From an uncultured Verrucomicrobiae bacterium (lineage in GTDB: Bacteria > Verrucomicrobiota > Verrucomicrobiia > Limisphaerales > Palsa-1400): a DNA stretch of 64,000 nucleotides. Where the stretch lies: the NCBI GenBank assembly GCA_963702845.1, contig OY969763.1:4864001-4928000 (forward strand), read 5' to 3'. The notes beneath the pieces are model-generated. The model worked only from the letters and a program-made list of their open reading frames with translations. It made no database searches and had not been told where the DNA came from. A program made the position numbers and the translations under genes. Positions 12,877 through 55,502 of the stretch are shown here, in pieces (position 1 is the stretch's first letter; each line of letters starts with the position of its first letter).

Positions 12877-15800
12877 CTACCAACCTTCAATGATGCGATA
12901 AAACCGCGCCGACGCATTCGTCGCGTCGCTATCGTTTAATTGCAACATGCCATTGCTGATGGACAGCGGCGCAAGCACCGGCCACCAGTCCACAAGATTC
13001 GAACTGTATTGCGCCTGGAACCCAGAAATATCCATGCCGCCGGAGAGCGCCGATCGATCAGCGTCTTGTGAAGTGATGGTGAACGTGCCGTCCGGTTGCA
13101 AGAGTGGCAGACCAATAGTTTGTGGTATGTGCACAGTCAGCACCGCGTTACTGCTGCGCATGCTACCGACGGAATTCGTCACGATCAGGAAATAAGTGCC
13201 CGACGAAGAACGGTAACTCGGATTAATTGTCAGCACCGGCGAAGTTGAAATGGCGGTGCCGCCAAACGTATTAAACCATCGATAAGTCAATGGCGCCGTC
13301 CCATACACACCCGCGCTGAACAAAACAGCCGGCCCACCCAACACCGTTTGGCTAAGTGGCTGGCTCGTGATGGTCGGCGCGATCGACGTGAACGTCAGTT
13401 GATCAACAAACCCGGCGTCCATCCCCGCCGTTCCTGCAGCATCCTTGGAATAAGTCCAAATAAGCATCTGCGGACCGGCCGGAACAGTGAACGTGACCAA
13501 CTGCCAATCCACTTCGCCAGAAATAGCCGCTTGCGGCACGCCACCGATCGACAACGTGAGAAAATCGTGGTTCGTTTCCGACGAAACCTTCCACCAAAAG
13601 CTGACATTGATCGGCCCGTTTGTGACCAGCATTCGCATCGATGACGCGGTGCTGCTGGCAATTTGTGCACTGCGCGCCGCGTGTTTGCCGTCGTGACTGA
13701 CTCCGGTTTGCCCGTACCATTGCGGGCTGCTCCGTGAGCTGACGACTAGCACGGGAGTGTCCAATGCCGTGGACAAAAACACAGGCGGGAAAGGTCGCGG
13801 CGAAAGCAAGGTTACAAAATGAGTAGCCCCACCGTCGGCAGCAATGACACCACCCAAACCTGGCGGCGGATTTGTTGCCGCTGCGCTGCCTGCCCAAGTC
13901 ACTACTGTTCCGTCCGACCTCACCGCCATTTTACTCCCATTATCCGTCGCTGCGACTTCGATGATGTTGGTCAGGCTATTCGTCGGTGGTGACAATCCCC
14001 AATCCACGATCGTGCTGTCACGCCGCAAGAACACGCCTGCGTACATCCCCGCAGCTGCCGCCAAAACATTTGTTACAGCAGGAGGGGCAGTGACGCCTTG
14101 ATACGTTATAACCGTCCCATCCGCGCGCAGTGCAATAAACCCGTTAGAATCATCTGCGAGCACAACGGTGTTCGAAAATCCCGCAGGCAATGAAACGAAG
14201 CCGCTAAAGCCAACACGCGTGAGAGTGCCGTTCGTACGGAGGAACGTCGCGCCCGAATTATCCGCTTCAATTGCCACGACATTGGACAAACTTGCCACTG
14301 CGTTTGAAAACAGTGCGCTGCTTGGCCCCCAGGGGGCGACCGTTCCATCGCTTCTTAATGCTAGCCGAGAACCTTGATACCCATCAGCAATTTCGACCAC
14401 ATTTGATAACCCTGCCGGAACATTCGTTCCGGTGTTGCCAAATAGAGCAACCGTCCCGTCATCTTTGAGTACCACGTTTTCATAATTGTTTGCAGCCAGC
14501 GCAACCGCATTCGTGAGCGAAGCCGGCACGTTTGTCTGTCCAAGACTGTTGTCGCCCCACGCGACGACCTGGCGCACCGTCAAAATGACATTGGTTGTTG
14601 CCACGAAGCCAAACGCGTTGCTCGCAACTAGACTATAAGTGCCCGCGTCCGAAACACGAACCGGATCGAGCACAAAATCCTCATTCGTCGCACCGGGCAA
14701 GTTCTGCCAGCCAACCGGGAGCGCTGGTGGATTCGTGGCAATCCGCCATTGCAATTGCATTGGGCCGGAACCACTGACCGGCACGCTCCAGGCCAAACGT
14801 GTTCCCACGTAGACCGTACGACTCCCGGGTTGAATTGAAAGAAATGGAGCACTATTCATTACGTTCAGGGGTAAAGGCACAGTGTTGGCTGCACCGATGG
14901 AATTCGTAACCACCAGTTGGTATGTTCCTGCATTCCCCATCTGCACATTTTTCACCGTCAACGCGGAATTCGTTGCGCCATCGATATTCGTCCCATTGAA
15001 CGTCCATTGATAAACCAATGGCGCGTTCCCGACCACTTGAGCATTGAATTTAAAATCCCGCCCGGTAAACGCAGTGCCACCGACCGGCGATTGCACGACC
15101 ACCGGCCGGCCATCACTAACCAGCGCCAAACTATGATAAGCGCCACCGGCAACAGCCACCACATTGCTCAAGCCGCTCGGCGCGTTCGTTTCTCCATAAA
15201 AATTGTCGCCCCACGAAATCACTGTGCCGTTCGTCAAAACCGCAAGACTGTGCCCCTGGCCTTGTGGGTATCCTCCCGCCGCGATCGCAACTACCCGTGG
15301 CGCTGACGCGTTGGTAAGAAGTGGAGGAATGTTCAATGCCTCGTCTTTTGTTCCCCATCCCACAATTCGTCCGTCCGATTTCAAAGCCAGGCACTGCCCA
15401 TAACCCGTCGCGATTGCCACAACGTTGCTCAACCCAGGTACAGGATTCGTAATCGCTGTCGTGCCACTCGTGGTAAGCGACGCACCCCATTCGAGCACCG
15501 TCCCATCAGAACGAAGCGCCAGGTATTGATTGTTTGCGGCCGCTGCAATGGCTGTGATTTTCGTCAGCCCAGTTGGCGTATTACCAACTGGCATCGCCGC
15601 AACGGTCCCATCAGAACGCAGAAAGAGCGATGAATTCCAGCCATCCGCGATAGCAACAATGTTGGTAAGCCCAGAAGACACGCCTCCTCCTCCCCACCCA
15701 ACAACCGTCCCATCAGCCAGCAAAGCGTGACCCGCGTCGTTAGGCCCCGCAGAAACCGCCACCGCATTACTTTGCGGGAACAAGCTGAAATTCATCCCCC

Positions 15801-18800
15801 ACGCAGTGAGCGAACCATCAGACCGGACACTGACACTGTAGTTTGCAGCACCTGCTATCCCAACCACGTTGCTCAATCCAGCCGGCGGCAAACATTGATT
15901 TGCATTATTGCGGCCCCAACACGCCACCGGCCCAACCGTCAACATGGCGTTCGAGCTCACTGTGACTCCAGCCACGTTGCTCGCCACCAAATTGTAAGTA
16001 CCCTAAATCCGCCGATGAGACGTTTGAAATCGTGTATGCGGTGCTCGTCGCCCCTGAAATGTTCGTCCCATTCAATTGCCACTGCAACGTAATCGGCACC
16101 GGACCTGTCGCATTAGCCGAGAATGTCGTCGGCAACCCAAGCGGGAGCGATCGTCCAATCGGCTGCGGCGTAATCGTTGGCGGTGCAAGCACCGTCAACA
16201 CAGCACTGCTGCTTGTGACAGATCCACCGCCATTGCCAGCCACCAAAACATAAGTTCCGCCATCGGTAACCTGCACGTTCGAGATGCTCAAGCTGCCCGT
16301 CGTCGGACCGGCAATGCGCGTGCTGTCGGACAGCACCGCTCCATTGAAAAGCCAGGTATAAATCAATGGCTGCGTGCCATCGACGCCGGCGCTGAAATTT
16401 GCAGTAGTCCCGACAATGTTTGTTCGACTAGTCGGCTGCTGCGAAATCGTTGGCGCCACCCCCACAAACACGTTCACCACCGAACTCGTAGCGACATTCA
16501 CACTGTTCAAAGCAACTACGTAGTAACTTCCGCTGTCGTTTGTTTGCCCAGGCGCGATGGTCAGATTTGGCGACGCCGCCCCGGCAATCCGCCCATCGTC
16601 AGCCAGCGCCGTGTTATTTACGTACCACTGATAGCCAATCGGAATCGAACCCACAGCCTTCACCGACATCGTCACGTTGGAACCCGGCGGCACAGTTTGG
16701 CCAATCGGCAGCAACGTAAACGTCGGCGGCAGCGATTGCACCGACAGTTGCGCGATAGCACTCGCGACCGTGTTCGAAGTTGTCGAAGTAAGCAGTTGAT
16801 AACTGCCGATGTCGTTTGTCTGCGCGCTCGAGATACTAAGCGAATATGTCGTCGATCCGGAGACGCGCCCGTTGTCAGTTAATGGCGCGCCATTGAAAAG
16901 CCATTGATAACTGATCGGCAACGGCGAACCAATGGCACCACCAACAAACCTCGCGTTGAAACCAGACACAACCGAGGCGTTCGTCGGTTGCAAAACAAAC
17001 ATCGGCGCAGTCGTTGCTTCCGTAATCTGCATCCCCGAAATCACCGCTTCGAGGCAAACCGAGTCCAGATACGTAATCACCACGCGCACGGATGATGTCG
17101 CATTCGTCAGCGCCACACCACGGAACGCCGCGTAGTGAACGCCTTGCAGCCAGTTCGTCGAACTATCGCCGCTCCCCCAAACTTGTTGTTGCCCCTGACT
17201 GACGCCGTTCACAAACAACTGGTAATTGTAATCACCGCAGCCCGCGTAATAATAAAAGTCAAACACACCGGGCGGGAGGTTGGTCGTGTCCACCGTCAGA
17301 TTTCCAGGCAAGTTGTATTGATACAAATAATCGTGATACATCGCGTCAGGATTACCGTTCACCGGCGCAACAGGTCCCGCTCCATAAACGTTCACCGTCA
17401 CCGCCGAAGGCGTGCCATCCGCCAACAGCAGGTTCGTCCTGCCCGTGATATTCGTGCCGTAAGAATTCCATAAGTCCGACGCAGTTTGGCCGATGGCCGC
17501 AGGCCCCGTCTTCAGCGAGCTCGGCCCTGTCCCGAAATCCACATTAATCAAAACATCCGGCGCAGTAACTGCAAGTGTAGCAAAATCACTCGTCACCGTT
17601 CCGTAACTATTGCTCGTCACAACCCAATAACTTCCCGCATCGCCGCGCAATGCAGATGCAATCGTCAAAACATTGCTGTCCACTCCAAATGCGCGGTTGT
17701 TCGCTAGTGGCGCGCCATTGAAATACCACTGGTAAACAAACGGCGGCGTGCCGGCCGCATTCACCGAAAACGTCGCCCAACTGCCGACAACATTCGTGCC
17801 CGATACCGGCTGCTGCGTCAGAGAGACCGGCGTCAGCACCGTCAGAGAAACATTCGCACTGATCGCCGCACCAAACTGATTCGTCACAGTCACCGAATAG
17901 GAGCCTTGGTCACCGAGCTGTGCCGAAGCAATCGCGAAAGTGGAATCAGTCGCACCGGAAATGTTAATCCCGTTCAATTGCCATTGATAACCCAGCGTCG
18001 CCGCGCCCGTCGCACCAACACTAAACGACGCCGGAGATCCCGAATGCACAACAAGGTTCGTCGGCTGATTCGTAATCACCGGCGCAGGTAAAGCGAAACT
18101 CTGCTCCGCCGCAAACGTCGAACCAACAAACGAATTATCAATCGCCTGCAGGCTCCAGAAATAACTGCCGCCCGCCAGATTCGTTATGAGCAAACTCGTG
18201 CGATAACCGGCGTTACCAATCTTCGGCACGCGCCTGAAGCCGGTGTTTAAATCAGCGAGTGGCGAAAGAATGTTAACCCCATTTGCATTCGTGCCGATCC
18301 GCACATTGTAGGTCAAGCCGCCTGCTTGTTCCGCATCACTCGAGCCCGTCCACGTCAGCAACGCGGAATTATATCCGAGCGTCACACTCAAACCACCCGG
18401 CGTTGTCGGCGGCGTGTCCGGCATCGCGCCGTTATTGTGATAAAGCTTGATCGTCGGAATATCTCCAGCCGTTTCGCCGATCGTAACGAGATCAAGCGCG
18501 CCGTCGTTATCGTAATCACCCCACGCCGCATAACCATTGACCATTCCGGGAATCGCAAATTGCGCTCCGGCAAAAGTCATGTTGCCGAAACCACGACATA
18601 TTTGTGAAACGCGATTGAAAGTCGGATCGTAACCAGCAAGAAACAGATCGGTCCTGCCGTCATTATCGAAATCGCCCGCCGCGGCAGCAGCGTTACGTTG
18701 CAGCCCGGGCAAAGACGAACCCACGTTGGTCAGCACTCCCGCGTCGTTGCGATAAATCGACGAGTAAGCACTGCCATTCGCCGTGCCAGTAAGCACTAAA

Positions 18801-20137
18801 TCCGGCGTGCCATCGTTGTTGAAATCCGCCCAGGCGACACCACCGGCAGAAAATCCCGTTATCGAATTTCCGCTATTCGTAAAAACACCGCTGCCCTGGT
18901 TCCGGTACAACTTCGACCCAAACGAATCCGCGGGCGCCTCCCCCGCGACAAACACATCCAGCGCACCATCGCCGTCATAGTCCACCCACGCCGCCATATT
19001 ATTGCCGGCCCCCAGCATGGACGTGGAGTGAAACGTAAAAGTCCCATCGCCATTGTTGTGGTAAATGGAATTAAAGCTCGCTTCCGTGATCATCAAGTCA
19101 GGTTTGCCATCGTTGTCGTAATCTCCCCAACGAACGCAGCCGGCATTGAAAGCGCCGATATTCGTGACTTGCGTAAAATGTCCGTTCCCGTCATTGCGAT
19201 AAACAAACGTCACCGCGAACGAAGAAGTCCCTCCGTTCAACGCCAGATCCGGCAAACCGTCATTGTTGAAATCCGCCCAATCCGCCGACGAGGACATCAG
19301 ATTCGCGAAGGGCGTCGCCACTTCCGTAAACGTGCTGTCGCCATTGTTGTGATAAAGCCACGTGTGCGGCGAAAAATTCGTATCCATTCCGCTCACGAAC
19401 AAATCCAGTCGCCCGTCGTTGTCGTAATCCACCCAATTCACCGTCCCACGACTCACCCCCGCCAAAATTGTCGCAACTTCCGAAAAATTCGTCACCGTCA
19501 ACAAAAACGAAGTGCTCGTGCCAAGCCCAGTCGGCAAATTCGTCACGCCCACCGTCATAGTCGTCGTGCCCACCAAAGCCCCTGTCGGCATCAGCGTCAT
19601 CGACCAATTGCTTCCCGACCCGCTCAACACGATGCTTGCAGGCTGAATCAAATTCGTATCCGACGACCTCACCGTAATAAACGACGACGGCGCGTTCCCA
19701 ATCGTGAATGGAATTGGACGCGTCATTGTATTTGGGAACGTCCGCTGATTCGGTATCGCCGAAATTGTTGGCGGCGCAAGCACGGTCAAAGTCGCCACTG
19801 AACTAGTCACCGCCCCATGCCGATTCGTCACAACTACCCTGTAAGACCCAATATCTCCGGCCAAAACCGTTACAATTGTCAGCGCCGAATTCGTCGCCCC
19901 AACAACACGACCACCGTCCGATAAATTCGCGCCGTTCTTCGACCATTGATAAGTCAATGGCGTCTGCCCGCTCGCCACCACTGAAAACACCGCGTTGCTT
20001 CCAGCGATTACAGTCTGGCTGCTCGGCTCGGTCGTGATCGCAGGTCCGGCCTGCGCATACAGCCGTTCAGGTGCAAAAAGTCCCAGCGCGCCCGCAACAG
20101 CGCAAATCCAACAAGCAATAGATGAAGCAGTTTTCAT
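12877..20137 (-). CDS. giant (~2400 aa) secreted protein with Ig-like, FG-GAP/VCBS and RCC1 repeats; one apparent frameshift near 16001
   Basis: signal peptide MKTASSIACW..; repeated 'P.IT.QP....YQW..NG..GSY.V.V.N..G' Ig modules; DYDNDG/DFNNDG repeats; RCC1 repeats 'ALRSDGTV..WG'; an Ig module continues across the two ORFs if one G of GGG at 16001-16003 is removed. Confidence 0.8.
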
Positions 20138-20270
20138 ATGTAAATCCAGCCAACTCCCGAGAGCTCCGTGATCGGTGAGAAACGATGCATGTTTTATCAT
20201 CGTCGGCAGAATCTGCCAAGCGTCCATTTGACAGCACACTCACTGAAAACCGATTAGTGGAGAAAACTAT

Positions 20271-20295
20271 GTAGGAGACGAGGTGACGAGTCTCT
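20271..20295. repeat. REP-like palindrome GTAGGAGACGAGGTGACGAGTCTCT
   Basis: GAGAC..GTCTC hairpin; related copies at ~62935-62960 and a left half at 59609-59619. Confidence 0.55.
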
Positions 20296-21398: not shown

Positions 21399-21435
21399 CA
21401 TAAACACCTAATATTTTACAGAGGCAAACGATTTT

Positions 21436-25953: not shown

Positions 25954-27102
25954 ATGAAGAATCTTCTTGCCCTTACCCTATTGTGTACCGCTTCTATCAG
26001 CGGATTCGCCGTCACGTTGCCAATCTTTGATCCGTTTACCGATGCTACTGCTTCAAACGGCACCGCCTATGCCGATTCAACATTGCTCCGCGATCAAAAG
26101 AATGCCCAAGGTGTGACCTGGCTTGGAATTAACACCAACCAAAACACCGGCCTGATCACGCTGTCGAGCTATGCGTTTACGAACTACGCCCCCGGCTCAG
26201 CGTTGCCCGCTCCGACCGGTGTCGAAGCCGGACAAGTCGGCGCTCCGGGCACCGGCACCGGCCAAGGCGTGCGATTGAATCTCACTGATTTTGCTACCAA
26301 CGGTATCAGCAACGGCACCGTTTACGCGTCGATGTATCTCCGTTGTAACGATATTAGTTTGTTGCCTGTCAACACCGGAACGGGCGCACTCCAGGGCGGC
26401 ATTTTCCACATCGGCTTTAGCGATACGGTTGGCGCGCAGGGCACCCTCCCGACAATTCTCGGAGGCCGTTGGTATTTCCATAAGTCGGCAACAGATGCTA
26501 GTAAGTACAGCATCGGTATCTCGAAGGTGACCAGCGCGACCGGCGGCTCAAATCCGACTGCCTACTACGACACCCGGGAGTGGAGCACGAGCGACGAACT
26601 CTTCGTTGTGGCGGGGTATACCTTTAATAGCGGCACTACAAACGATGACGTTGTCAAACTGTGGATCAATCCTCCCGCTAACACCCTCGGCGCCGCCAGT
26701 GAGCCCAGCGCCAACGCACAAAGCGGCAACACTGTTTTGGATACGGATCTGAAATCGATCGGCAGCTTCAACATCATGGTGCGCAACACCACTCAAGTCA
26801 CATCAATGCTGTTCGACGAAGTGCGCCTCGGCACGACTTGGGCACAAGTGACTTCGACCAATACCGCTGTCATCCAGCCAATCATTCAACCAACTTTGAC
26901 GGCTTCAGTTATTAACCCGTCGACTGTGCAACTTTCATGGGGAACGAATTCGACCGGGTTTACTTTGCAAAACACATCGGCACTTTTATCGACCAATACT
27001 GCGTGGGTAAACGTAAGTGGCGGAGCGACTGTTTCCGGGACGAATTACCTCCAGACCGATACGATTGGTGGCACGAAGTTTTACCGATTGCTCCATCCAT
27101 GA
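25954..27102 (+). CDS. secreted Thr/Asn/Gly-rich protein with C-terminal FYRL domain (paralog 1)
   Basis: signal peptide from ATG 25954; 'DDVVKLWINP..FDEVRLGTTWAQV' core; ends KFYRLLHP. Confidence 0.75.
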   Translation: MKNLLALTLLCTASISGFAVTLPIFDPFTDATASNGTAYADSTLLRDQKNAQGVTWLGINTNQNTGLITLSSYAFTNYAPGSALPAPTGVEAGQVGAPGTGTGQGVRLNLTDFATNGISNGTVYASMYLRCNDISLLPVNTGTGALQGGIFHIGFSDTVGAQGTLPTILGGRWYFHKSATDASKYSIGISKVTSATGGSNPTAYYDTREWSTSDELFVVAGYTFNSGTTNDDVVKLWINPPANTLGAASEPSANAQSGNTVLDTDLKSIGSFNIMVRNTTQVTSMLFDEVRLGTTWAQVTSTNTAVIQPIIQPTLTASVINPSTVQLSWGTNSTGFTLQNTSALLSTNTAWVNVSGGATVSGTNYLQTDTIGGTKFYRLLHP

Positions 27103-27200: not shown

Positions 27201-28307
27201 ATGAAAAACCTTCTTGTTTGCTTATCCCTGTTTGCGTGCTCTCTGAGCGCGTTTGCGTTTCCTTCATTTGAACCGTTTGCAGATTCGACCTCTGTTACCG
27301 GTGGAACTTCCTACGCCGCCGGTGCTGCTTTGGCTGGACAAACCAATTTGTTAGGAGAGGGCTGGGTCGCGATCGGCACCACTGCCACCGGCGCAACCGT
27401 CGTCCTCACCAATGGATCACTGACTGCCCCGGTCGGTTTGCCTTCGTCCACAGGTAATATGGTGCAACTGGTGAATCAACTTGGGCCGGGAGGTCGCTAT
27501 AACTTCTCGTCCCATACGACCGGGAGTGTGTTTTATTCGGTTCTGATCCAATTGAAGGACATCACCAACCTGATCGCTGCCAACACCAATACTCACGGCG
27601 GCGGCGCTTTCAACCTGGGCTTCAATAACTCCACCACTGTTAATCAGGCTGCAAATCCGACTGGATATGGGGCGCCCCTTTTCTATGGCAACGTCACCAA
27701 TAGCAGTGGCGTTTCGCAGGGTTACCTCCTGGGTATTGGCCGTGGCACCGGCTCCACTAACCGATTCTGGGAGACCAATACGTCAAATTTCCACCAGGTG
27801 AGCGATATCGTGTTTGTCGTCGCCTCTTATACCGTCGTGGCGGGCGTCAGCAATGACATTGTTGCGTTGTGGGTGAATCCCGACCCTTCGACTTTTGGCG
27901 CTGCTAGCGCTCCGACGCCTACTATCCTAATCGACGGCGTCACCATCGTAGCGAACGAAGCCGACGTCAGTCCCATCACCAGTTTCCTACTGGCCAATCG
28001 CAACACCGGATCGCCGAACTTAATGTACGCGGACGAACTCCGACTTGGCACAAATTGGGCACAAGTAACTCCAACGACGAACGCGGTGGCGGTTATTCCC
28101 ACGCTGAGTGTTTCGACAATCGACCCAAATACCGTGCAACTATCGTGGCGTGGTGATGCGACCGGTTTTACGCTGCAAGGCACGGGCCAGCTTTTGTCCA
28201 GCGGCACGCCATGGACGGCTGTTCCCGGAACACCTACCACTGCTGGAACGAACTTAATCCAGACGGATGCCATCAGCGGGACGAAGTTTTACCGCTTGTT
28301 CAAGTAG
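27201..28307 (+). CDS. secreted Thr/Asn/Gly-rich protein with C-terminal FYRL domain (paralog 2)
   Basis: signal peptide from ATG 27201; 'NDIVALWVNP..ADELRLGTNWAQV' core; ends KFYRLFK. Confidence 0.75.
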   Translation: MKNLLVCLSLFACSLSAFAFPSFEPFADSTSVTGGTSYAAGAALAGQTNLLGEGWVAIGTTATGATVVLTNGSLTAPVGLPSSTGNMVQLVNQLGPGGRYNFSSHTTGSVFYSVLIQLKDITNLIAANTNTHGGGAFNLGFNNSTTVNQAANPTGYGAPLFYGNVTNSSGVSQGYLLGIGRGTGSTNRFWETNTSNFHQVSDIVFVVASYTVVAGVSNDIVALWVNPDPSTFGAASAPTPTILIDGVTIVANEADVSPITSFLLANRNTGSPNLMYADELRLGTNWAQVTPTTNAVAVIPTLSVSTIDPNTVQLSWRGDATGFTLQGTGQLLSSGTPWTAVPGTPTTAGTNLIQTDAISGTKFYRLFK

Positions 28308-37139: not shown

Positions 37140-37799
37140 TTAGGCAGTCTTGCGAGAACGAGCAAACAAGGCCAAGCCAGTCAAGCCGGAGCCCAACAAA
37201 GCGAGGGTCATGCCCGCGTCAGGGACCGGGACTGTCACCTGCTGATCAAAGCTCGACTGTCCGGCACCGGTCGCCACCAAAATTGCGGTGAGCGTCAAGG
37301 TCGATGAGCCAGGGCCACTAATGGCGCCAGTCGTAGTTCCACTAAACGCTCCAAGAGTAGTGAAAGTCTGAGTGGCCACAGTGGTACTACCCGGAGCAGT
37401 GGTGACACCGAAACTAGCGCTGGTGTTTCCTAGGGTACCGCCGACGGCGTTTACGATGGTGCCAGAAAATGGCCCCAAGTTGTCGGCCGTGAACCTCATG
37501 GTCAACGTACTACTACCAACACCGTTAAATGAATTTACCGAGCTGAGGTCGACAAATGGGTGTGAAGCGTTACCAAGGGGGCCTGGAGGGTTGGCTGTGC
37601 CGGTCGTCACGTTGATGGTCCAACCGCCGATAGTACCGATGAACGTCACGGCGCCAACGTTGACATTTGCGTCGCCTGCAAGCTGGTCAACAATGGTCAC
37701 AGAATTAACGCCATCGCTCAAAAACAAGGTCGGCACCGCAGTTGCAGATTGCACAGCGAGTAATGCCGCTGCCGCACTTAGAATTAATATTTTCTTCAT
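37140..37799 (-). CDS. VPDSG-CTERM (PEP-CTERM variant) exosortase-target surface protein
   Basis: signal peptide; C-terminus VPDAGMTLALLGSGLTGLALFARSRKTA. Confidence 0.88.
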   Translation of the reverse strand: MKKILILSAAAALLAVQSATAVPTLFLSDGVNSVTIVDQLAGDANVNVGAVTFIGTIGGWTINVTTGTANPPGPLGNASHPFVDLSSVNSFNGVGSSTLTMRFTADNLGPFSGTIVNAVGGTLGNTSASFGVTTAPGSTTVATQTFTTLGAFSGTTTGAISGPGSSTLTLTAILVATGAGQSSFDQQVTVPVPDAGMTLALLGSGLTGLALFARSRKTA

Positions 37800-38347: not shown

Positions 38348-39016
38348 TTACGTCGTCTTGCGGGTTCGGTTGAACGCTGCCAAGCTAATCAGGCTCGAAC
38401 CAAGTAAGGCCACGGTCAACCCAGCATCGGGAACGCGCAGATCTTCACTTAAACTGGTGACACCATAGTGGGTATGAGTGATCGTCGCGACTTCGGTCAA
38501 TGAGAACGAGGCACCAAGTGACAAGGGCGTTGACGCAAGGTCGTTAAACCCACCGACACTGAACGGCCCCTGCGAGGTCAAAAGTGTCCCTTGGCCAAAA
38601 AGAGCGTTCGATGCGTCGGCATACGTTTGGACGCTCACGGTACCACCGGCCGTTCCACCCGTCTTCGAGACAAACACACCGGAAGAGGGACCGAAGAAGT
38701 CGTCGGAGAACTTGATAGTGAGGGACCCAGCACCTTTTGAGTTGGCATTAACCGAGCCCAAACTCATCCAAGGTTGGGTAGCAGATCCAAGGTCCGGCTT
38801 GCTCAAGCCAGTGGTGACGTTCATCGTCCAGTTAATTCCAACCGCGCCATTGTAGCCAACAACGCCAACTGCGGAATTAGAATCCAAAGCACTACCGTCA
38901 GCAATGGTCACAGAAGTGACACCATCACTCAGATACAACGTCGGAACTGCACTTGCGCTGCCTACCAAGCCGAGAACTCCCGCTGTCACTCCCAAAATTT
39001 TTACGGACAATTTCAT
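38348..39016 (-). CDS. VPDSG-CTERM surface protein, paralog of 37140-37799
   Basis: signal peptide MKLSVKILG.., shared mature N-terminus 'AVPTL(F/Y)LSDGV.SVTI.D'; C-terminus VPDAGLTVALLGSSLISLAAFNRTRKTT. Confidence 0.88.
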   Translation of the reverse strand: MKLSVKILGVTAGVLGLVGSASAVPTLYLSDGVTSVTIADGSALDSNSAVGVVGYNGAVGINWTMNVTTGLSKPDLGSATQPWMSLGSVNANSKGAGSLTIKFSDDFFGPSSGVFVSKTGGTAGGTVSVQTYADASNALFGQGTLLTSQGPFSVGGFNDLASTPLSLGASFSLTEVATITHTHYGVTSLSEDLRVPDAGLTVALLGSSLISLAAFNRTRKTT

Positions 39017-39069
39017 ATTCGACAACCTAACGCTCAACGAACCGGTCTATAACCGTATCCGGTTAAGTA

Positions 39070-41330: not shown

Positions 41331-42237
41331 CTAAGGAACCAAAATTTCTTTCCTCAACAACCCTACATTCTCATTTCGCAACCGCACATCCAAGGTCCCA
41401 TCGACCATCTTTTCCGGCCCTACGTGCCCGTCGCAAAATACCACATTCGCGCGCTTATTATGGCGGAAGTGCGCGTGGGCTGCGTCGGCTCGATAATCCA
41501 CTGAGTAGAATTCTTCCAACATCGGATTGCTCGCCGAGGCCGGCGCTTGAAACGTGTTCACTTGCGCTGCGTCGGCCAACAAAACTGTGTCCGCCGGACG
41601 CACGATTCGCTTCGTCGAAATCGGCGGATACGTGACGTTCGTGGAAAGGTTCAAATTGTATCCATAACCATAAGCCGCGCCGGTCGCTTTATATTTGAAC
41701 TGTGTCGCCGCAATAATTCAGTGACGGACAAATATCCACGCCGTGCCCGCGCAAATACGGATACAACGCGCCTTGCGTCACATCAAAACCGCGCGTCGCC
41801 TCCGCGCCGTTCTCCAACCAACCAAACCAATACAAACGGCCATTGTTCGTCGTCCAATAGAAGTAACGAAAACAATTCCCGCTATTCTCATCCCAATACA
41901 AATGCGTCGCGATCCCGAGCTGATGCAAATCGCTCGTGCACTGTATCCTTTGTGCCGATTTTTTACTTCGCGCCAAAACGGGCAATAACAGCGACGCCAG
42001 AATCGAGATGATCGCAATAACAACGAGCAACTCGATTAACGTGAAGCCGATTTTTTCGTTCCGTGGCGGACGTTTTTGCAATTCCGTTTTCAAACAATCC
42101 GGACAAAGACAATCGCGTCCCGCCACCGGCGGCACAGATGGCATTTCCATGCACCAACACCTGGTGCCGGGGCATCCCGCATAACACAGAAACGCCTTGC
42201 CGCAGATGGCACACGCTTTTGTCTTCGCCAGACTCAT
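41331..42237 (-). CDS. prepilin-type N-methylation / H-X9-DG (DUF1559-like) protein with N-terminal Cys-rich CWC domain; apparent frameshift near 41701
   Basis: CAICGKAFLC..CWC..CLCPDC, then G|FTLIELLVVIAIISILASLLLP; YGYGYN and RHNKRANVVFCDGHV in the downstream frame. Confidence 0.85.
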
Positions 42238-42240: not shown

Positions 42241-43845
42241 TTATCGTTGCGCTTTCACGCGATAAAACTGCATCGCCCCACCCGAATTATCCTGTAATTG
42301 CAACGCGCCGCCATTGCCGCTCACGCTTGCCGCATCCGTCCACGTGTTCAAATCCGTGCTTCGTTGCAAAGTGTAGTTCCAATTGGTGCGACTCACAAAA
42401 TTGGCGCTCCAAGCATTGTTACTGAATCCACCATGGAAGCTCGTCACAGCCGGCGGCGGCAATGTCATCGCAATATTCGCCACGGTTCCATGTGCCAGCA
42501 CCGAACTGCCGTACCCTTGATCATCGTTGAAACTGCTGATGCTCAAAGTATCGACGCGAAAATCTCCCAGCGACGACGCCAGCGGATCGACAATTGTCAA
42601 ATTCGTGCTCACCGAACTTATCGTCGTCACCATCGTATGATTCGACGACGTGTAATTCATCAACACGTGATACCACTCGTTCGTGTTGAATGCGTACACG
42701 GCGTAATCGTCGCCGCTGTTGAAATTGAACGTGCTGTTCGTATCGACAAACAGCGGCCAATCCGTCGTGCCGAAACCTGAATCAAAAAAATAGTCAAACT
42801 CACACAGGTCGGGTGACAAAAAGCCGGTCCCGCGCAAAAACCCGGGCTTCGTCGCTTCCGCAAAGTTCAAGAGCCCGATCGTGATCCCGAATGAAAAACT
42901 TTTCGTCGGATCAGGTCCCGGCCCGATGTCTTTCAGCAACAAATCAAATGCGAGGCTGAAATCATCGTCGCGATTCAACACTGACCCGAGCGGATGATAG
43001 AAGTAACTGTTCGACTGGCCCGAATCCCACGTGACATCCAAATTTTTATTCGTCGCGTTCCATGCGAATAAATTTGTGTTACCAAAAATCTGCCAACCAT
43101 CGGCCAGCGGATCGCTTACGAAACTTTCCTGCAACGACGGCACCACGGAAATCGCATCCACCTCCGATTTGCCGCTCAAGACGGTGATGCGCACATAATT
43201 AGCCGACGAAATCACGCCGTAGTTTCCATTGGTATCTCGCGCCCACGCCAGATCGTAACCCGTCCCGCCCGCCGATCCGGCGTACAATGCTCGAATTCCA
43301 GACAATCCCTGTCCCGCAAAATTCGGCGAGCCGAAGTGTGGATTCACCGGCAACGAAGGATTACCAATACCGTCCGTCGGAAAAATATTATCCACGGTCA
43401 ACGCCAGCGATTGATTCAAGGTGAACCAGTTCGTAGCGTCCTGGCTCACTTCCACCTTCGTGGTACCAGTGTTATTGCCGAGCAACGAACCATCTGTAAT
43501 TCCGCCTCCGGAAAAATTTCCATTCGTAATCACAAAACCGGTATTCCCATAAATGATGAAATCGATTCCGAACGGATTCATCGGATTGTCCACGATCGGC
43601 ATCGACGTATGAACTGTGAGTGAGCCGCCGGCGCCGAGCGACAGCAGTTGCGAGTTTTTAAACGCGGGGCTGAAAGGGTTCGCGTTGGTTGTCGGGCCAC
43701 CCAGCGTTACTGCTGGATTTGTGAACCCGGCCGAGAAACCGGTACCGGAAGAATAATCCACCACCGCATCGGCGAAGTAGCCGGCACGCGACGGTGTAAT
43801 AAGTGCAAGACAGGCAACGGCTGTTGCCAGATATTTTTTGGACAT
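42241..43845 (-). CDS. secreted surface protein, putative cobalamin-binding (BtuH-like N-domain) with C-terminal FYR domain
   Basis: signal peptide MSKKYLATAV..; 'LSLGAGGSLTV..IVDN..GIDFIIYGN' motif; lies under a B12 riboswitch; ends QFYRVKAQR. Confidence 0.65.
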   Translation of the reverse strand: MSKKYLATAVACLALITPSRAGYFADAVVDYSSGTGFSAGFTNPAVTLGGPTTNANPFSPAFKNSQLLSLGAGGSLTVHTSMPIVDNPMNPFGIDFIIYGNTGFVITNGNFSGGGITDGSLLGNNTGTTKVEVSQDATNWFTLNQSLALTVDNIFPTDGIGNPSLPVNPHFGSPNFAGQGLSGIRALYAGSAGGTGYDLAWARDTNGNYGVISSANYVRITVLSGKSEVDAISVVPSLQESFVSDPLADGWQIFGNTNLFAWNATNKNLDVTWDSGQSNSYFYHPLGSVLNRDDDFSLAFDLLLKDIGPGPDPTKSFSFGITIGLLNFAEATKPGFLRGTGFLSPDLCEFDYFFDSGFGTTDWPLFVDTNSTFNFNSGDDYAVYAFNTNEWYHVLMNYTSSNHTMVTTISSVSTNLTIVDPLASSLGDFRVDTLSISSFNDDQGYGSSVLAHGTVANIAMTLPPPAVTSFHGGFSNNAWSANFVSRTNWNYTLQRSTDLNTWTDAASVSGNGGALQLQDNSGGAMQFYRVKAQR

Positions 43846-43916
43846 GACTGGTCTTTCTGAACTGATCGCCAAAGTTATTGGCGAATGGTTTTAATGAGAG
43901 ACCAGTGCGAAGCCTG

Positions 43917-43960: not shown

Positions 43961-44063
43961 CATCCATCGAATCCCATGGAAAACAGTTCCACAGGGCTGG
44001 CCTCATCCTTCTCTTGTCGGAGAAGCGCCCAGCTCTTGTGCAAGAGCTGTGGCATGACGAGCA

Positions 44064-44218
44064 TTACCAGGCTGATATCCTGACTTCGGGCTGATGTCCG
44101 CTCTCCCGCCTTCCCGGCGTCGCGTTTGGTGATGCGACGACCAGTGGCATTAGGAGTTTGTCACCCGTTACAGTGGCGCAACCGTCCTCGATTCACACGA
44201 GGTTCCCAGCGTTGGTAA
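44064..44218 (-). ncRNA. cobalamin (B12) riboswitch
   Basis: minus strand GGGAA-cctcgtgtgaatcgagg-ACGGTTGCGCCACTGTAA..GCCACTGG..CCGGGAAGGC..AGTCAGGA; closing stem TTACCA/TGGTAA. Confidence 0.92.
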
Positions 44219-44385
44219 CTAACTGACTTTTCAAAGAACGATTCGAGTCAACGCTTCTACCCCGGCTTTGGCAAGGGAATTGTTACTTCGAAACGCGCCG
44301 CAGAAATTCAACTCCCGTTTTGTTGAAGTTGAAAACGATGGGAGATTTTGCCCTCTCTCATGTACGGTTTTGTTTCCGTCGTAAT

Positions 44386-47628: not shown

Positions 47629-47691
47629 AACGTCGCGCAACGGTTCTAACTTCGTTGACTGTCGCAATGCAAATCCGGCAAACTGCGCCCA

Positions 47692-48672: not shown

Positions 48673-49619
48673 TGCGGCATCGCCTCGCATTGCTAATTCT
48701 GTTTTGCGCCCTCACCTCATTTTTGAGTGAGGGCGCAAACATTTCGGGCGTTGAATACGTCCACCTCAACGAGTGGGCGCAGAGCGCGGGTTACAAGGCA
48801 AAATGGCTCCAGCGCGACAAAGTTGTGCAATTCACCGGCTCGCGAACGAGCGCGACGTTTGAAATCGATTCGCGCAAAGCCGACATCGGCGGCGTCACGG
48901 TCCTGCTGTCGTTCCCGATTGCCGCTAGTCACGGCGCGGCCATGATCTCCCAACTTGATCTGCGATCGACTGTCGAACCGATTATTTCTCCACATCCCAA
49001 ACGAAAGCCGATCAAAACCATCTGCCTCGACCCCGGTCATGGTGGCCACGACGCCGGAAAGATCGATGGCCGTAATTTGGAAAAAAATTACACACTTCTG
49101 ATTGCCAACGAGGTCGCGGCGCTCCTTCGCAAAAATGGTTTCAAGGTCGTGATGACGCGCACGCGCGACAAAACACTCGATCTAATCGAACGCCCTGAAA
49201 CCGCGCGCCGTGCCGGTGCCGATCTATTCGTAAGCCTGCATTACAACGCCGGGCCGTCCGAGGTTCACGGCTTGGAGGTTTACTGCCTCACTCCGGCTGG
49301 TGCCAACTCGAGCAATGCCGGCGGCGGGAAATCCAGTTCGTCACGAAACGTCGGCAACGCCAATGACGATAACAACGTTCTACTCGCGTTTACCCTACAG
49401 AAAACCATCGTGCGCGAAACGGGTTTGGAAGATCGCGCGATGAAACGCGCCCGTTTCGAAGTCTTGCGTGAAGCGCCGATGCCCGCCGTTCTCATCGAGG
49501 GCGGTTTTATGTCCAATCGCGCGGAGGCAAAAAAAATCTACGACTCCGCATTTCGGAAACGCATGGCTCAGGCGATCGTCGACGGCATCCTGAGCTACAA
49601 ACAACTAGCCGGTCGCTGA
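48672..49619 (+). CDS. N-acetylmuramoyl-L-alanine amidase (Amidase_3)
   Basis: LDPGHGGHD, EK, FVSLHYNA, AVLIEGGFMSN. Confidence 0.92.
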   Translation: MRHRLALLILFCALTSFLSEGANISGVEYVHLNEWAQSAGYKAKWLQRDKVVQFTGSRTSATFEIDSRKADIGGVTVLLSFPIAASHGAAMISQLDLRSTVEPIISPHPKRKPIKTICLDPGHGGHDAGKIDGRNLEKNYTLLIANEVAALLRKNGFKVVMTRTRDKTLDLIERPETARRAGADLFVSLHYNAGPSEVHGLEVYCLTPAGANSSNAGGGKSSSSRNVGNANDDNNVLLAFTLQKTIVRETGLEDRAMKRARFEVLREAPMPAVLIEGGFMSNRAEAKKIYDSAFRKRMAQAIVDGILSYKQLAGR

Positions 49620-51023: not shown

Positions 51024-51110
51024 GGGATATGACTTCGTAATCCCTTGACGCGGCGATCGCCAGCAAAGTTTCGCTTTCCACACCGACAACCGCGTATTAC
51101 ATAATAGTAC

Positions 51111-51139
51111 TTGCCTCATTTGCCGCAGGAATCTATATT
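51111..51139 (+). promoter_or_regulatory. sigma70-type promoter of rpmI-rplT
   Basis: TTGCCT-N17-TATATT. Confidence 0.5.
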
Positions 51140-51196
51140 CCCCGCTCTTTTGAAAGGGGCATCCCGATATCCGGGTTGCCCTGAAAGGTAATTTTT

Positions 51197-51406
51197 ATGC
51201 GACGGCCTAAAGGCATTAAGACAAAGAAATCTGTAGCGAAACGGTTCAAAATAACCGCAACCGGTAAAGTCATGCGCATGCGCGCTGGTAAACGCCACCT
51301 TCTGCAAGGCAAAAGCGCTGGCCGCCGCCGCAATCTCGGCACCGGCAAAGAGGTGCACCATACCGACACCTATCGCATCACCCAGAGCCTGCCGTTCAGC
51401 CACTAA
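51197..51406 (+). CDS. rpmI: 50S ribosomal protein L35
   Basis: KTKKSVAKRFKITATGK..RHLL. Confidence 0.95.
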   Translation: MRRPKGIKTKKSVAKRFKITATGKVMRMRAGKRHLLQGKSAGRRRNLGTGKEVHHTDTYRITQSLPFSH

Positions 51407-51419
51407 CATTTAGACATCT

Positions 51420-51797
51420 ATGCGTGTTACAAATTCTCCAGCTTCCCGTAAGCGCCGCATCCGGACAATCAAGGCGGCCAAGGGTTTCCGCCTTAAGCGC
51501 TCCAAACTGTATCGTTACGCCGCCGACGCGCTCGACCACGGTATGCAATACGCCTACCGCGATCGCCGCGTCAAGAAGCGCACCTTCCGCGCGCTCTGGC
51601 AAGTGCGTATCAACGCCGCCAGCCGCGCCGCCGGCATGACCTACAGCCGTTTCATGGAAGGCCTCAAAGCCGCCAAGTGCAGCCTCGACCGCAAAGTCAT
51701 CGCTGACCTCGCCGCCCAGGACGCTGCCGCATTCCAGGAATTGATCAAGCTCGCCCAGGGCGCGCTCAAGACCAAAACGTCAGCAGCCGCGAAGTAA
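51420..51797 (+). CDS. rplT: 50S ribosomal protein L20
   Basis: YAYRDRRVKKRTFRALWQVRINAA..YSRFM..LDRKVIADLA. Confidence 0.97.
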   Translation: MRVTNSPASRKRRIRTIKAAKGFRLKRSKLYRYAADALDHGMQYAYRDRRVKKRTFRALWQVRINAASRAAGMTYSRFMEGLKAAKCSLDRKVIADLAAQDAAAFQELIKLAQGALKTKTSAAAK

Positions 51798-51826
51798 AAA
51801 CGCCAAGCCGCAAAGTTTTTCGAACT

Positions 51827-51856
51827 GGCACGCTCCGAACCGAGCGTGCCTTTTTG
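51827..51856 (+). terminator. intrinsic terminator after rplT, flanked by ACGCAAAG-type repeat arms (51799-51817 and 51871-51905)
   Basis: ggcacgctc..gagcgtgcc followed by ttttt. Confidence 0.75.
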
Positions 51857-51916
51857 CTGAATATCTTTTCAACTTTGCGCCTTTGCCCCTTAGCGTCTTT
51901 GCGTTAATAACAAACC

Positions 51917-52921
51917 ATGTCTTTGCTAAACGACATCGAACCTTTGAAGCAGGCCGCGCTGGCCGAATTGAAAGCCGCGTCCGACCTCGCCACCCTCGAA
52001 CACGCCAAAGGTTCCTTCATCGGCCCTCAGGGAAAATTCACCGCGCTGATGAAACAGATGGGCTCGCTCACCAAAGAAGAGCGGCCCGCTGCCGGCAAAC
52101 TCATCAACCAGGCCAAAGCCGAAATCGAAACCGCCTTGGTCGAACGCCGCGCCGAACTCGAACTTAAAGCCGCGCTCCCAAAAGAGCCGACCGATTGGAC
52201 CCTGCCCGGTCGCCGTCGCACCATCGGCAAACTTCACCCACTCACGCAAGTCACCGAAGACATCGTCCGCAGCTTCCGCAAAATCGGATTCGCGGTCGCT
52301 GACGGTCCCGAAGTCGAAGACGAATACCATTGCTTCGACGCCTTGAACACGCCCGCCGACCATCCCGCGCGCGATTCCCAGGACACGTTCTATCTCAAAA
52401 ACAACGAGCGTTCCCTTTTGCGCACACATACCTCCTCTGTGCAAATCCGCGTGATGGAAAAGCAGCCACCGCCCATCCGCATCATCGTCCCCGGCCGCGT
52501 CTATCGCCGGGACAATCCCGACGCCACCCACAACCCGACCTTCAACCAGATCGAAGGCCTCTACGTCGACAAAAAGGTCACCGTTGGCGATTTGAAAGGC
52601 TCCGTCGAATTCGTTTTCAAAGACCTGCTCGGCGCCGACACAAAAATCCGTTTTCGTCCGCACTATTTCTCCTATACTGAGCCCAGCTTCGAAATCGATT
52701 TCTCCAGTCCGCTCGTGAAAAAAATGGGCAAACAATGGCTGGAGATCGCCGGCTGCGGCATGGTCCATCCCCAAGTCTTCGAGAACGTCGGCTACGACCC
52801 CGAAGAATGGACCGGCTGGGCCTTCGGCTTCGGCATCGAACGCATCGCCATGATCCGTTACGCCATCAACGACATCCGCCTCTTCTACGAGAGCGACATG
52901 CGTTTCCTGAAACAATTCTGA
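51917..52921 (+). CDS. pheS: phenylalanine--tRNA ligase alpha subunit
   Basis: HPARDSQDTF, LRTHTS, FSYTEPS, GWAFGFGIER. Confidence 0.98.
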   Translation: MSLLNDIEPLKQAALAELKAASDLATLEHAKGSFIGPQGKFTALMKQMGSLTKEERPAAGKLINQAKAEIETALVERRAELELKAALPKEPTDWTLPGRRRTIGKLHPLTQVTEDIVRSFRKIGFAVADGPEVEDEYHCFDALNTPADHPARDSQDTFYLKNNERSLLRTHTSSVQIRVMEKQPPPIRIIVPGRVYRRDNPDATHNPTFNQIEGLYVDKKVTVGDLKGSVEFVFKDLLGADTKIRFRPHYFSYTEPSFEIDFSSPLVKKMGKQWLEIAGCGMVHPQVFENVGYDPEEWTGWAFGFGIERIAMIRYAINDIRLFYESDMRFLKQF

Positions 52922-52995
52922 ACGTTTCCCGCCAGCGGCGCGACCGACGCAAGCGTGACGAAAGCTGCCGATTCAGAAATTATACATCCCGCCTT

Positions 52996-53508
52996 ATGAA
53001 ACTATCGGATCTACTCAAGCTGAGCAGTTCAACCACACACAACGTCCTTAGTTTGTTTTCGGTGGCAATTTTACTGCTTTCCGGTTGTGCTACTACGCAA
53101 ACGTATTCGCAGGGATCGGCCACCTCCAAAACTGATTTAATTACTTTAACGTGCGATTCGGAAACCAATCTTAAGCTCTTTCCCGGAGCGAACCGCACCG
53201 TCACGATTACAAAACTGGACGGGAAAAACGTAGGGTCGTCTGTTTCTGAGCTTTTGTTTGGCGCGGCTGGCCACGCGCCGGGAATCGACCTTGCTTATGT
53301 CATCGCAGGACGGCATGAACTCGTTCTACACTGGAGGTCCATGAACACTTACGCAAACATGGCGTTGTGGTTTAATGCCGAAGCCGGCAAATCATATGCG
53401 GTCCGTTGGAAATCATTTAAGGGGCGCAACTTCCTGGACCCGGGCTCTACCGATTTTTGGATAGAGGAAGTCGCGACAGGAAAACACGTTGGTGGAGTGT
53501 TGGAATAA
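52996..53508 (+). CDS. hypothetical lipoprotein (paralog A)
   Basis: LSGC lipobox; 'GRHELVL..FNAEAGKSY..FWIEE'. Confidence 0.65.
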   Translation: MKLSDLLKLSSSTTHNVLSLFSVAILLLSGCATTQTYSQGSATSKTDLITLTCDSETNLKLFPGANRTVTITKLDGKNVGSSVSELLFGAAGHAPGIDLAYVIAGRHELVLHWRSMNTYANMALWFNAEAGKSYAVRWKSFKGRNFLDPGSTDFWIEEVATGKHVGGVLE

Positions 53509-53921
53509 TGAAAGAGCGTTTCGCACATGTTATTTCGGTCGCCTTCGCTGCGGCATTAGTAAGTATTTGCGGCTGCAGCACGCGGATCACATGGACGGAG
53601 GACAAAGGGGTAAACCGCAACGAACTTGTAAAAGTTACCGGCGACTGGGAACCAAAATACAAGGTATTTATCGTCAAAGTTGATGAAAAGCGGCTGCGAA
53701 ATAACGTTCTCACCGGCTTAAATCAAACGGCATATCTTAAACCCGGCCAACATACTTTGGTGGTTGGGTACGAACACCGAATGGTCGGGCCTGGAATTAA
53801 TGGCGAGGGAGAGTCCCGGGCTTTTCAAAAGCTGAAGTTTATTGCGCAAGCCGGTAAGTCATACGCGATCCACCGAAAGCTGGACGGTTATCAAATTACT
53901 TTCTGGATTGATGAGTTGTAA
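53508..53921 (+). CDS. hypothetical lipoprotein (paralog B)
   Basis: ICGC lipobox; 'GQHTLVV..FIAQAGKSY..FWIDE'; TAATG coupling to the upstream gene. Confidence 0.65.
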   Translation: MKERFAHVISVAFAAALVSICGCSTRITWTEDKGVNRNELVKVTGDWEPKYKVFIVKVDEKRLRNNVLTGLNQTAYLKPGQHTLVVGYEHRMVGPGINGEGESRAFQKLKFIAQAGKSYAIHRKLDGYQITFWIDEL

Positions 53922-53975
53922 CGAGCCAACGTTAGGTTCTTAAGAATCGGCGTGAGAATTGTACCCCGCTTAGCG

Positions 53976-55502
53976 TTATTGCCCCGGCTTGATGAGGCGA
54001 AAGAACTGCGCGGGACTGGCATCGATTGGGATCGAGACTTCAAACGAGTTGTTACTCTGCGAATAAGGTCCGGGGACAATTTGCCATACGCCGTTGGTGG
54101 ACACATCGGAGGAGCTTTGCAGGTTGAAGTTGGTGTAATCGGATGGCCATGCCAGTTGCAAAACGCCGGGGGTCGAGGCAAACGAGAGTTTTGGGGGCAC
54201 GTTCACTCCTGTGCCGAACAGTTCGAGATCGAAAGTAAGGCCCGGTCCAGCAACAATCGCTCTGTGGACCTCCACGGCAATGACATTTGTGCCTGCGGGA
54301 AGCGACATTGGCAGATTCGTCGCATAGTAAGTCCTTAAATAGTCTCCAGACAATCCTGGGGAAAACGTTGCCTTGGTTTGATAGGTGATCGTGCCCGCGG
54401 GAAGACTAACGCGATAAAGCTCCTTTCCGTTGAGGTAGACCACCGCACCATCCAAGCGGTTCAGGCGCAGGTTGAGATTGGTGTAGGTAACATCGCCGGG
54501 GACGACGAATGGATGTCGGAAATAGGTGGTGATGTATTTGTTATTCGGATCAGATCCGTAGCTCACGGTGGTCGTTTCGTAAACACCGTAGCCGAGCCGC
54601 CCTGCGCCCTGGGACCATGTTGAATCATCATAACCGGGCTGAGACCAGTTGGTGCTGAGGTCCAAGCCCTGGTCCGAGTATCTCCACGTCGAACCGCCTT
54701 GAATAAAAGGGGTCGTCACATAGTCGGGCCGAGCCGTGATCGCGGCGATTCGGAACATCATTTCGTTTGCAAGAAGCGAAAAACCTGTGGCAGTCGGATG
54801 CGTGCCGTCGCTGATCAAATTTGTGCCGACGGCCGAGAATAAATCCGCCACGTACACATTTTGGCCCTGGGCACGCCGAGCGGTGGCTAAGGCTTGGACT
54901 GCGTCGCCGAAAGCCCACATGTTCGTCTTGTATGAGCCATAGCTAAGAATCGTGGAGGCACTGATGGATGTGGGCTTGCTGACAATGATGTGGGCGTTGG
55001 GCACCTTGGCGAAGATCAAATCCAATAGCGCGGACAGGTGGTTAGTTGCCACCAGATAGGGATCGCGTCCGCGTCCCATATCGTTCACCCCCATGTCAAC
55101 GAGGACAAGATCGGGAAAAAAAGCATTTGTAAAAGCGTCAGACAGGCTCTTTAACGTGTAATTGTTTGCCGCCGTATAACCGTGCGGCGAGCCGCCCACG
55201 CCCGGGGCGCCAATCACCGCACTGTCCATCCCCTCGTGATGAACCTGCGTGAAGCCAGAGGAGGGAGCAGAGGACCAGCGTCCGAGATTTGTAAAGGCGT
55301 AGCCATTGGTGACAAACAGCTTCTGCAGATAAGACCGCCATGCGCCAGACATCGAGGAATCATCCGTAATCGAATCACCACTGCAGAGCACCTTCAGCGG
55401 ATGGGCGGCGGTGTAATTGGTCAGCACGAGTCCCGCACGCGCTGCGACGGCAAACGCGCCCACCATCAACCAAATTAATAGGAGCCACCAACGCCTTTTC
55501 AT
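53976..55502 (-). CDS. secreted SGNH/GDSL hydrolase with beta-sandwich domain and C-terminal FFRL domain
   Basis: GDSIT, GVND, DGTHP; 'WRYSDQG..LGYG..TTYFRH..DGAVVYLNG' module. Confidence 0.85.
   Translation of the reverse strand: MKRRWWLLLIWLMVGAFAVAARAGLVLTNYTAAHPLKVLCSGDSITDDSSMSGAWRSYLQKLFVTNGYAFTNLGRWSSAPSSGFTQVHHEGMDSAVIGAPGVGGSPHGYTAANNYTLKSLSDAFTNAFFPDLVLVDMGVNDMGRGRDPYLVATNHLSALLDLIFAKVPNAHIIVSKPTSISASTILSYGSYKTNMWAFGDAVQALATARRAQGQNVYVADLFSAVGTNLISDGTHPTATGFSLLANEMMFRIAAITARPDYVTTPFIQGGSTWRYSDQGLDLSTNWSQPGYDDSTWSQGAGRLGYGVYETTTVSYGSDPNNKYITTYFRHPFVVPGDVTYTNLNLRLNRLDGAVVYLNGKELYRVSLPAGTITYQTKATFSPGLSGDYLRTYYATNLPMSLPAGTNVIAVEVHRAIVAGPGLTFDLELFGTGVNVPPKLSFASTPGVLQLAWPSDYTNFNLQSSSDVSTNGVWQIVPGPYSQSNNSFEVSIPIDASPAQFFRLIKPGQ

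Follow-up and report, generated by a model that had tools for sequence, protein, structure and literature searches.

Five proteins encoded in a 64,000-nucleotide window of DNA from an uncultured Verrucomicrobiae bacterium (GenBank assembly GCA_963702845.1, contig OY969763.1, positions 4,864,001 to 4,928,000 of the forward strand) share a C-terminal domain of about 70 residues that closes with the motif F(Y/F)R, which we call the tail. We propose that the tail is a docking socket for a small secreted adaptor, D, and that D is in turn held by P, a PEP-CTERM protein anchored through exosortase, such that many different cargo proteins would be displayed at the cell surface. We assign this reading a probability of roughly 0.65. 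An earlier note on this DNA, made from the sequence alone, had suggested an outer-membrane export or surface-attachment tag; surface attachment now appears the better of these two branches, while an export signal like that of type IX secretion (T9SS) is weakened.

Results

The tail resembles a fibronectin type III domain that lacks its G strand

The genome is a single contig, 89.8% complete, and its six-frame open reading frames (ORFs) were searched with a tail profile. Built from the five window tails, the profile found 33 domains in the first round, 28 of them beyond the five (iE<1e-3), and 32 ended within 15 residues of the stop codon. The converged profile matched 162 ORFs with one copy apiece, and reversed ORFs, used as a control, gave 0 matches. 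The strict C-terminal position foreseen in the earlier note holds for 141 of the 162 copies, while 21 have more than 15 residues after the domain. By a crude signal-peptide heuristic, 86 of 108 terminal-tail ORFs of at least 400 residues scored positive, compared with 669 of 1627 background ORFs. None of 45 tails gave a useful match to any Pfam or NCBIfam family. These results support the view that the tail is a lineage-specific, uncatalogued domain on exported proteins.

A HMMER scan of 1.84 billion proteins returned 83,101 matches at E<=0.001, which is not a family size because true fibronectin type III (FN3) repeats sit among the best rows; the profile also weakly matches true FN3 repeats of the same genome. 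Querying the ESM Atlas gave only unnamed Verrucomicrobiota clusters, with recognition under the Atlas mark. The tail is also found internally, in tandem arrays and fused before or behind other modules. Several proteins (P0004, P0010, P0011, P0014, P0017, P0025 and others) end in 3-8 tandem tails joined by short linkers, for which multivalent docking is possible. Two weak tail-like domains (G000 C1:310386-312137 and C1:5879542-5882295; iE 0.03 and 0.002) lie right behind a signal peptide and are not C-terminal.

The AlphaFold2 model of the tail at 42241..42474 has six strands and a mean pLDDT of 84.9. A structural search with this model ranked FN3 and Ig-like chains at the top, the best with Z 7.5 (rmsd 2.2, 67 aligned) and none at 8; Foldseek found nothing at E<=0.001. 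FN3 strands A, B, C, C', E and F are present with the FN3 Trp/Tyr pattern, while FN3's own G strand is absent, the chain stopping after strand F in 141 of the 162 copies. Since single FN3 chains (3teu, 7jgu, 3mpc) align with the tail only to about residue 75-78 of 90-98, the tail appears to correspond to an FN3 domain that stops at strand F and has no G.

Natural fusions point to D as a candidate partner

Thirteen of the 21 non-terminal tails directly precede a 320-residue domain, TIGR02597, and 13 of the genome's 14 TIGR02597 domains lie directly behind a tail. In other genomes, TIGR02597 mostly stands alone, with a T-D-P-V-G motif 2-6 residues behind its signal peptide. Through this motif class we found the one stand-alone short form of this genome, encoded at C1:353834-354472(+), beyond the window, with two PEP-CTERM genes coming next. 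We refer to TIGR02597 (the long form) and the uncatalogued short form together as D. The short form has the motif S-x-N-[AV]-[VI]-G-Y 2-6 residues behind its signal peptide and 1,974 homologs, and belongs to no Pfam or NCBIfam family. TIGR02597 has no described function, and the term is absent from the literature searched. Among the matches listed, the named D homologs are almost all from Verrucomicrobiota, many from Limisphaerales/Pedosphaera.

No solved relative of D was found by sequence or fold: the full structural run contained no chain with Z as high as 5 (the best row had Z 5.0 once re-aligned), Foldseek with the D model gave nothing at E<=0.001, and the absence of a structural match is not proof of a new fold. 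D contains a pair of repeats (alignments A3 and A5); in each, a hairpin closes with G-W, and its tip often has Phe or Leu. These features may bind P or a membrane.

Fusions of the tail to either form of D were recognised by profile in G004 and G032, at eleven loci of nine relatives and in two database proteins, and by eye in G177, G081 and G128. As the regions were picked for D lying in a longer ORF, the set shows that such fusions exist, not how frequent they are. The spacing between the Y of FYR and the conserved G of D, measured at 28 of 29 junctions, was 13 residues (n=17), 14 (n=5), 12 (n=1) or 17-29 (n=5); it is thus 12-14 residues at 23 of the 28, a fixed spacing that fits a tight F-G hairpin. 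Reverse and mixed orders also exist: D-tail, D-tail-tail, tail-D-cargo and four D units in one protein. Four tail-D fusions of about 300 residues (L140, L142, L143 and L144; G227, G228, G203 and G236) seem to have no signal peptide and begin with a short basic stretch. At L082 and L083 (G032 and G128), secreted 150-residue proteins match only the second half of D.

The earlier note knew of no characterised machinery for the tail. Our literature search, mostly without subscription papers, likewise found no description of a tail-D-P system, but a candidate cognate partner has now been identified in D.

A D strand is predicted to fill the vacant G position

That a D strand supplies the missing G strand was a hypothesis set down before modelling. 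One complex job was performed, pairing the tail of the 42241-43872 protein with the genome's mature stand-alone D in three runs with three controls. The runs scored 0.90, 0.89 and 0.90, and the best control 0.01; the score mark is reached by 116 of 157 solved complexes versus 2 of 215 mismatched pairs, counts that are only rough with the alignments used here. At least 98% of contacts are shared between the runs, and partner pLDDT is at least 81.

The predicted geometry agrees with the hypothesis. D residues 22-35 are modelled antiparallel to tail residues 66-77 (V31-Y71, G32-F70, Y33-Q69) in the G position, and the interface takes in strand A (tail 9-17). The lowest-error contacts have tail F70 and L42 packed on D V119 and V139-P140-Q141, and also involve D V31 and G32. 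At the interface positions of the tail, F is conserved in 72% and L in 62% of 134 terminal copies, while D V31, G32, V119, V139, P140 and Q141 are invariant or nearly so in 101 homologs. When D was modelled alone, its first nine mature residues formed no strand. As neither sequence nor fold searches gave a solved relative of D, it is unlikely that the model remembered a like complex, although such models are familiar with completed FN3 domains. The complex model supports binding of the tail to D without showing it, and we regard such binding as highly probable.

A PEP-CTERM gene follows the stand-alone D gene

An independent scan of species genomes for D gave at least 74 loci, with 66 stand-alone D genes among the matches listed, 55 of which have at least 750 bases downstream. 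Among these, a PEP-CTERM gene comes next after D in 52 of the 55 with room, and one lies directly upstream in 1 of the 66; in 2 of the 3 exceptions, the gene next after D encodes a tail protein. Loci picked earlier by hand had a PEP-CTERM gene behind D in 38 of 45 rows (two duplicates). The order tail gene-D-P occurs at 5 loci in 4 genomes, and both a D-P-tail protein in a single ORF and a P-tail protein behind D occur.

P proteins carry TIGR02595/PF07589, with a C-terminal PEP motif, helix and basic tail; the P domain itself matched nothing in Pfam or NCBIfam. The P profile matches only the two genes behind D in this genome, which has two exosortases. The tail proteins are not themselves PEP-CTERM substrates, as 0 of 61 PEP-like ORFs carry a tail. 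The tail route and the PEP-CTERM route appear linked, since the likely partner D adjoins a PEP-CTERM gene, and the proposal in the earlier note that the tail runs parallel to the VPDSG-CTERM route looks wrong.

Several neighbourhoods contain further genes. At L094, L099, L100 and L105 (G113, G014, G083), three genes in a row encode a small secreted protein with a tail, then a divergent D, then a PEP-CTERM protein; the N-terminal domain of the first gene product is only faintly like P (E 0.1-0.6). At L046, L049 and L054, in three genomes, the D-P pair is followed by a larger secreted protein that is conserved and has a similar N terminus.

Tail and D co-occur across Verrucomicrobiota

We scored 200 genomes of the phylum, each at least 90% complete, with at most 28 tail candidates per genome. 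The tail was found in 80, D in 73 and PEP-CTERM in 121, and every genome with D also has PEP-CTERM. Tail and D occur together in 61 genomes, the tail alone in 19, D alone in 12 and neither in 108; within the 121 PEP-CTERM genomes the corresponding numbers are 61, 16, 12 and 32. A follow-up found D in G066, G174 and G032 and D-like sequences in G128 and G113, and 4 of 5 re-checked D-only genomes had weak tail-like ends (E 0.08-0.4). Among 40 relatives, tails were present in 39 (18 to at least 138 proteins each) and D in 33; the relative without tails is also without D. Related genomes are not independent of one another. PEP-CTERM alone was rejected as a correlate, being broader than the tail (121 versus 80 genomes).

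Tail genes of the window

The five tails lie in the window at the positions first given and have the endings that had been quoted, and they align with Q, W, F and R invariant; the profile built from them retrieves further copies. Of the pattern first described for them, the giant's tail lacks the first W and both paralogs lack the S of LQxS. The description as five signal-peptide proteins stands for the paralogs and fails for the tail-bearing ORF of the giant as assembled. The gene is split by a frameshift at a short G run (window 15990-16000, near 15995, minus strand), likely a sequencing indel, which leaves this ORF without its own signal peptide. Many tail ORFs genome-wide begin mid-protein, so that (long-read) indel errors are likely.

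Table 1. Tail domains of the window and associated features (window coordinates).
Feature	Position	Strand	Remarks
Tail domain (FN3-like, six strands), C-terminal in Ig/FG-GAP/RCC1 giant	12877..13130	-	Tail profile
Ig/FG-GAP/RCC1 giant gene	12877..20239	-	Overlapping ORF pair; signal peptide on 15905-20239, tail on 12877-15990
Tail domain, paralog 1	26866..27102	+	Signal peptide; ORF start near 25954; no Pfam family
Tail domain, paralog 2	28074..28307	+	Signal peptide; ORF start near 27201; no Pfam family
Tail domain, cobalamin-riboswitch protein	42241..42474	-	Gene 42241-43872, ORF from about 43845; copy used for fold and complex models
Cobalamin riboswitch, 5' of the 42241-43872 gene	44053..44246	-	RF00174, 61.8 bits
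Tail domain, SGNH/GDSL hydrolase	53976..54212	-	ORF 53976-55502

Pfam confirmed the Ig/FG-GAP/RCC1 and GDSL/SGNH cargos, the other three having no Pfam family, and the predicted B12 regulation is borne out by the riboswitch (Table 1). Of 387 aligned residues, paralogs 1 and 2 have 156 in common. Thr plus Asn make up 14-21% of the five tail proteins, against a background median of 9.5%, as the earlier description of them as Thr/Asn-rich would have it; N-glycosylation sequons are scarcely enriched (1.09 versus 1.05).

Directly 3' of the riboswitch-controlled tail gene lies a gene for a prepilin-type N-methylation protein (window 41689-42237, minus strand), possibly in the same B12-regulated operon. 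Two VPDSG-CTERM-like proteins (window 37140-37799 and 38348-39037, minus strand) score 24.2 and 21.1 bits, just below the Pfam cut-off of 25.

Discussion

Cargo, D and P carry signal peptides, by which each would be exported. After export, the first residues of D are predicted to pair antiparallel with the F(Y/F)R strand of the tail and to touch strand A, with the conserved Phe and Leu of the tail packed on conserved D residues, a prediction that the natural fusions support. D would bind P, as suggested by the gene pairing and one D-P-tail fusion, and P would be cut and anchored by exosortase, as its PEP-CTERM family implies. The folded complex might conceivably cross the outer membrane by type II secretion. 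With one or a few D-P loci, tens to more than 100 different enzymes and adhesins would then be displayed. The widest form of this proposal, for which we see an even chance, is a general display system of Verrucomicrobiota on a split FN3 domain, in which a genome's enzymes and adhesins, as many as hundreds of them, are held by donor-strand complementation on D, itself held by a dedicated PEP-CTERM protein, with D-tail, P-tail and D-P-tail proteins extending or branching it into cellulosome- or pilus-like arrays.

A number of observations weigh against display through D and P. Binding is predicted from one complex job on one pair, in which completion of an FN3 domain may have been favoured from model memory. 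Contact between D and P would follow from gene order and one fused ORF, and a weak search for longer P relatives found none. There is one stand-alone D for 141 terminal tails, with a modest codon bias (86th percentile). Tandem tails have no G strand between them, which shows that six strands can recur as a unit, one that is perhaps stable. One of the 14 TIGR02597 domains sits behind a complete FN3-like domain and not behind a tail, and four of the tail-D fusions seem to have no signal peptide. The association of tail and D across the phylum is overstated because the co-occurring genomes are kin. The profiles applied found no D in eight genomes (G062, G089, G092, G122, G143, G009, G018 and G072) whose tails number from 6 to at least 28; G089 has only 7 contigs. 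The four of these genomes that were tested for P also lacked it, with the positive control scoring. Six of the 39 tail-bearing relatives also have no D, all of them at 190-800 contigs.

D could instead be a recycled chaperone or shuttle that caps the tail edge in the periplasm and passes cargo to an outer-membrane machine such as type II secretion, in which case the tail would be an export signal and the cargo not necessarily cell-bound. The many-to-one ratio of terminal tails to stand-alone D would suit such a shuttle, like PorV for type A C-terminal domains (CTDs) in the accessible part of PMC12618676, and so would the arrangement in G060, where a giant tail gene has the D gene as its immediate downstream neighbour, like the type B CTD-shuttle pairs. 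Permanent fusion of D to cargo in many proteins, with up to four D in one, suits a structural module better, and the D gene is tied to a PEP-CTERM gene and to no secretion locus. The six secretin matches in this genome fit a shuttle; secretins are, however, found in 192 of the 200 genomes without tracking the tail, and being near universal they make profiling for type II secretion uninformative. We consider the shuttle unlikely.

That D and P are subunits of a donor-strand-exchange fibre or lattice, with P-PEP-CTERM as base and tail proteins as tips or branches as in the WxL pilus, strikes us as improbable, since this genome encodes no D-tail or P-tail extender and no chaperone or usher gene was seen beside D-P. 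D-tail, D-tail-tail, D-P-tail and P-tail proteins and repeated tail-D-Ig units nonetheless exist as blocks that could act as both donor and acceptor, and the many D homologs on contigs of 1.0-1.5 kb may represent abundant transcripts. A self-sufficient six-stranded tail that binds a surface or glycan alone, with D completing it only in fusions and the in-trans model an artefact, would explain the tandem arrays, the tail-rich genomes without detectable D and the weak sequence likeness of part of the domain to chitosan-binding modules (E 3e-5), but it has little probability given complex-model controls of at most 0.01, conserved residues of tail and D that meet at the predicted interface, a donor motif retained directly behind the signal peptide of stand-alone D, and a fold search headed by FN3 and Ig-like chains.

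Verrucomicrobiota break down polysaccharides in habitats that include soil, peat, lakes, the sea and the rumen, and a tail-D-P system would bear on how their large enzyme sets stay at the surface. What is likely new here is a probable partner, D, and a two-gene D-P locus for an orphan tail; the mechanism would be a donor-strand complementation variant built from parts that had no known function. If display through D and P is true, it would give a first function to TIGR02597 and to a class of PEP-CTERM proteins, link PEP-CTERM anchoring to the indirect display of non-PEP proteins, and allow the displayed proteome to be predicted from the tail. It would also constitute a natural tag and catcher, a small split-domain pair for protein engineering. 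With a named partner locus, the orphan tag becomes directly testable.

Comparison with known systems

Chaperone-usher pili are built from an Ig-like domain without its last strand, which is completed by the N-terminal extension of another protein. The predicted tail-D complex is similar in that an incomplete sandwich is filled by the partner's N-terminal strand, and differs in having an FN3-like and not a pilin fold, no usher or chaperone found, and a many-to-one relation. In the cohesin-dockerin cellulosome, a portable module, terminal, internal or repeated, plugs many enzymes onto a cell-anchored adaptor. The tail follows the same logic, with one module, many enzymes, an anchored adaptor and terminal, internal or repeated placement; the folds are unrelated, strand complementation would replace calcium-dependent helix docking, and no large scaffoldin was found in this genome. 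In the strand complementation of PilC/PilY1, as far as the accessible part of PMC12918778 describes it, the cargo is the donor, the reverse of the arrangement proposed here, where D is the donor.

T9SS provides a closer parallel in organisation. Type A CTDs with PorV and type B CTDs with PorP/SprF, as described in the accessible part of PMC12618676, are likewise terminal beta-sandwiches of about 75 residues on many Sec-exported proteins with one shared partner, whose gene at times lies directly behind a cargo gene. The partner D is, unlike theirs, a small secreted protein without a barrel, and the tail is also internal, tandem or fused to D. The type A CTD family was tried and rejected as an identity for the tail: type A CTDs are seven-stranded Ig-like sandwiches according to the same part of that source, whereas the tail is modelled with six strands, and 0 of 45 tails matched TIGR04183 or PF18962 at E<0.1. 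A T9SS-like export signal is weakened on these two grounds and because the domain is also internal, tandem and fused. The structural search, which bears on the comparison with T9SS CTD folds proposed in the earlier note, contained no CTD-titled entry among 50 rows listed (best Z 7.5, 67 aligned). SprA, PF14349 and PF18962 were not found in the genome, which is 89.8% complete, with no control genome scored and PorV and PorU not searched for. A "T9SS-like CTD" is mentioned for Akkermansia Amuc0953 in the accessible part of bioRxiv 10.1101/2025.09.11.675649.

Most alike in working is the WxL/Elr donor-strand pilus of Enterococcus, as far as it is described in the accessible part of bioRxiv 10.64898/2026.10.17.759780. 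The tail system differs from it in its FN3-like fold, its diderm host, and a cargo that is often enzymatic and scattered over 162 loci; tail, D and P matched no pilin, WxL or associated chaperone family in Pfam or NCBIfam. The known parts of tail-D-P include no chaperone or fibre. Donor-strand complementation, the completion of a sandwich by another chain's terminal strand, is what the complex model predicts for tail and D, and the spacing in the fusions supports it. Both systems would carry a variable payload on an invariant C-terminal attachment module, both include members that could donate as well as accept a strand, and both have a sorting-signal protein as the likely base, LPxTG in Enterococcus and PEP-CTERM here.

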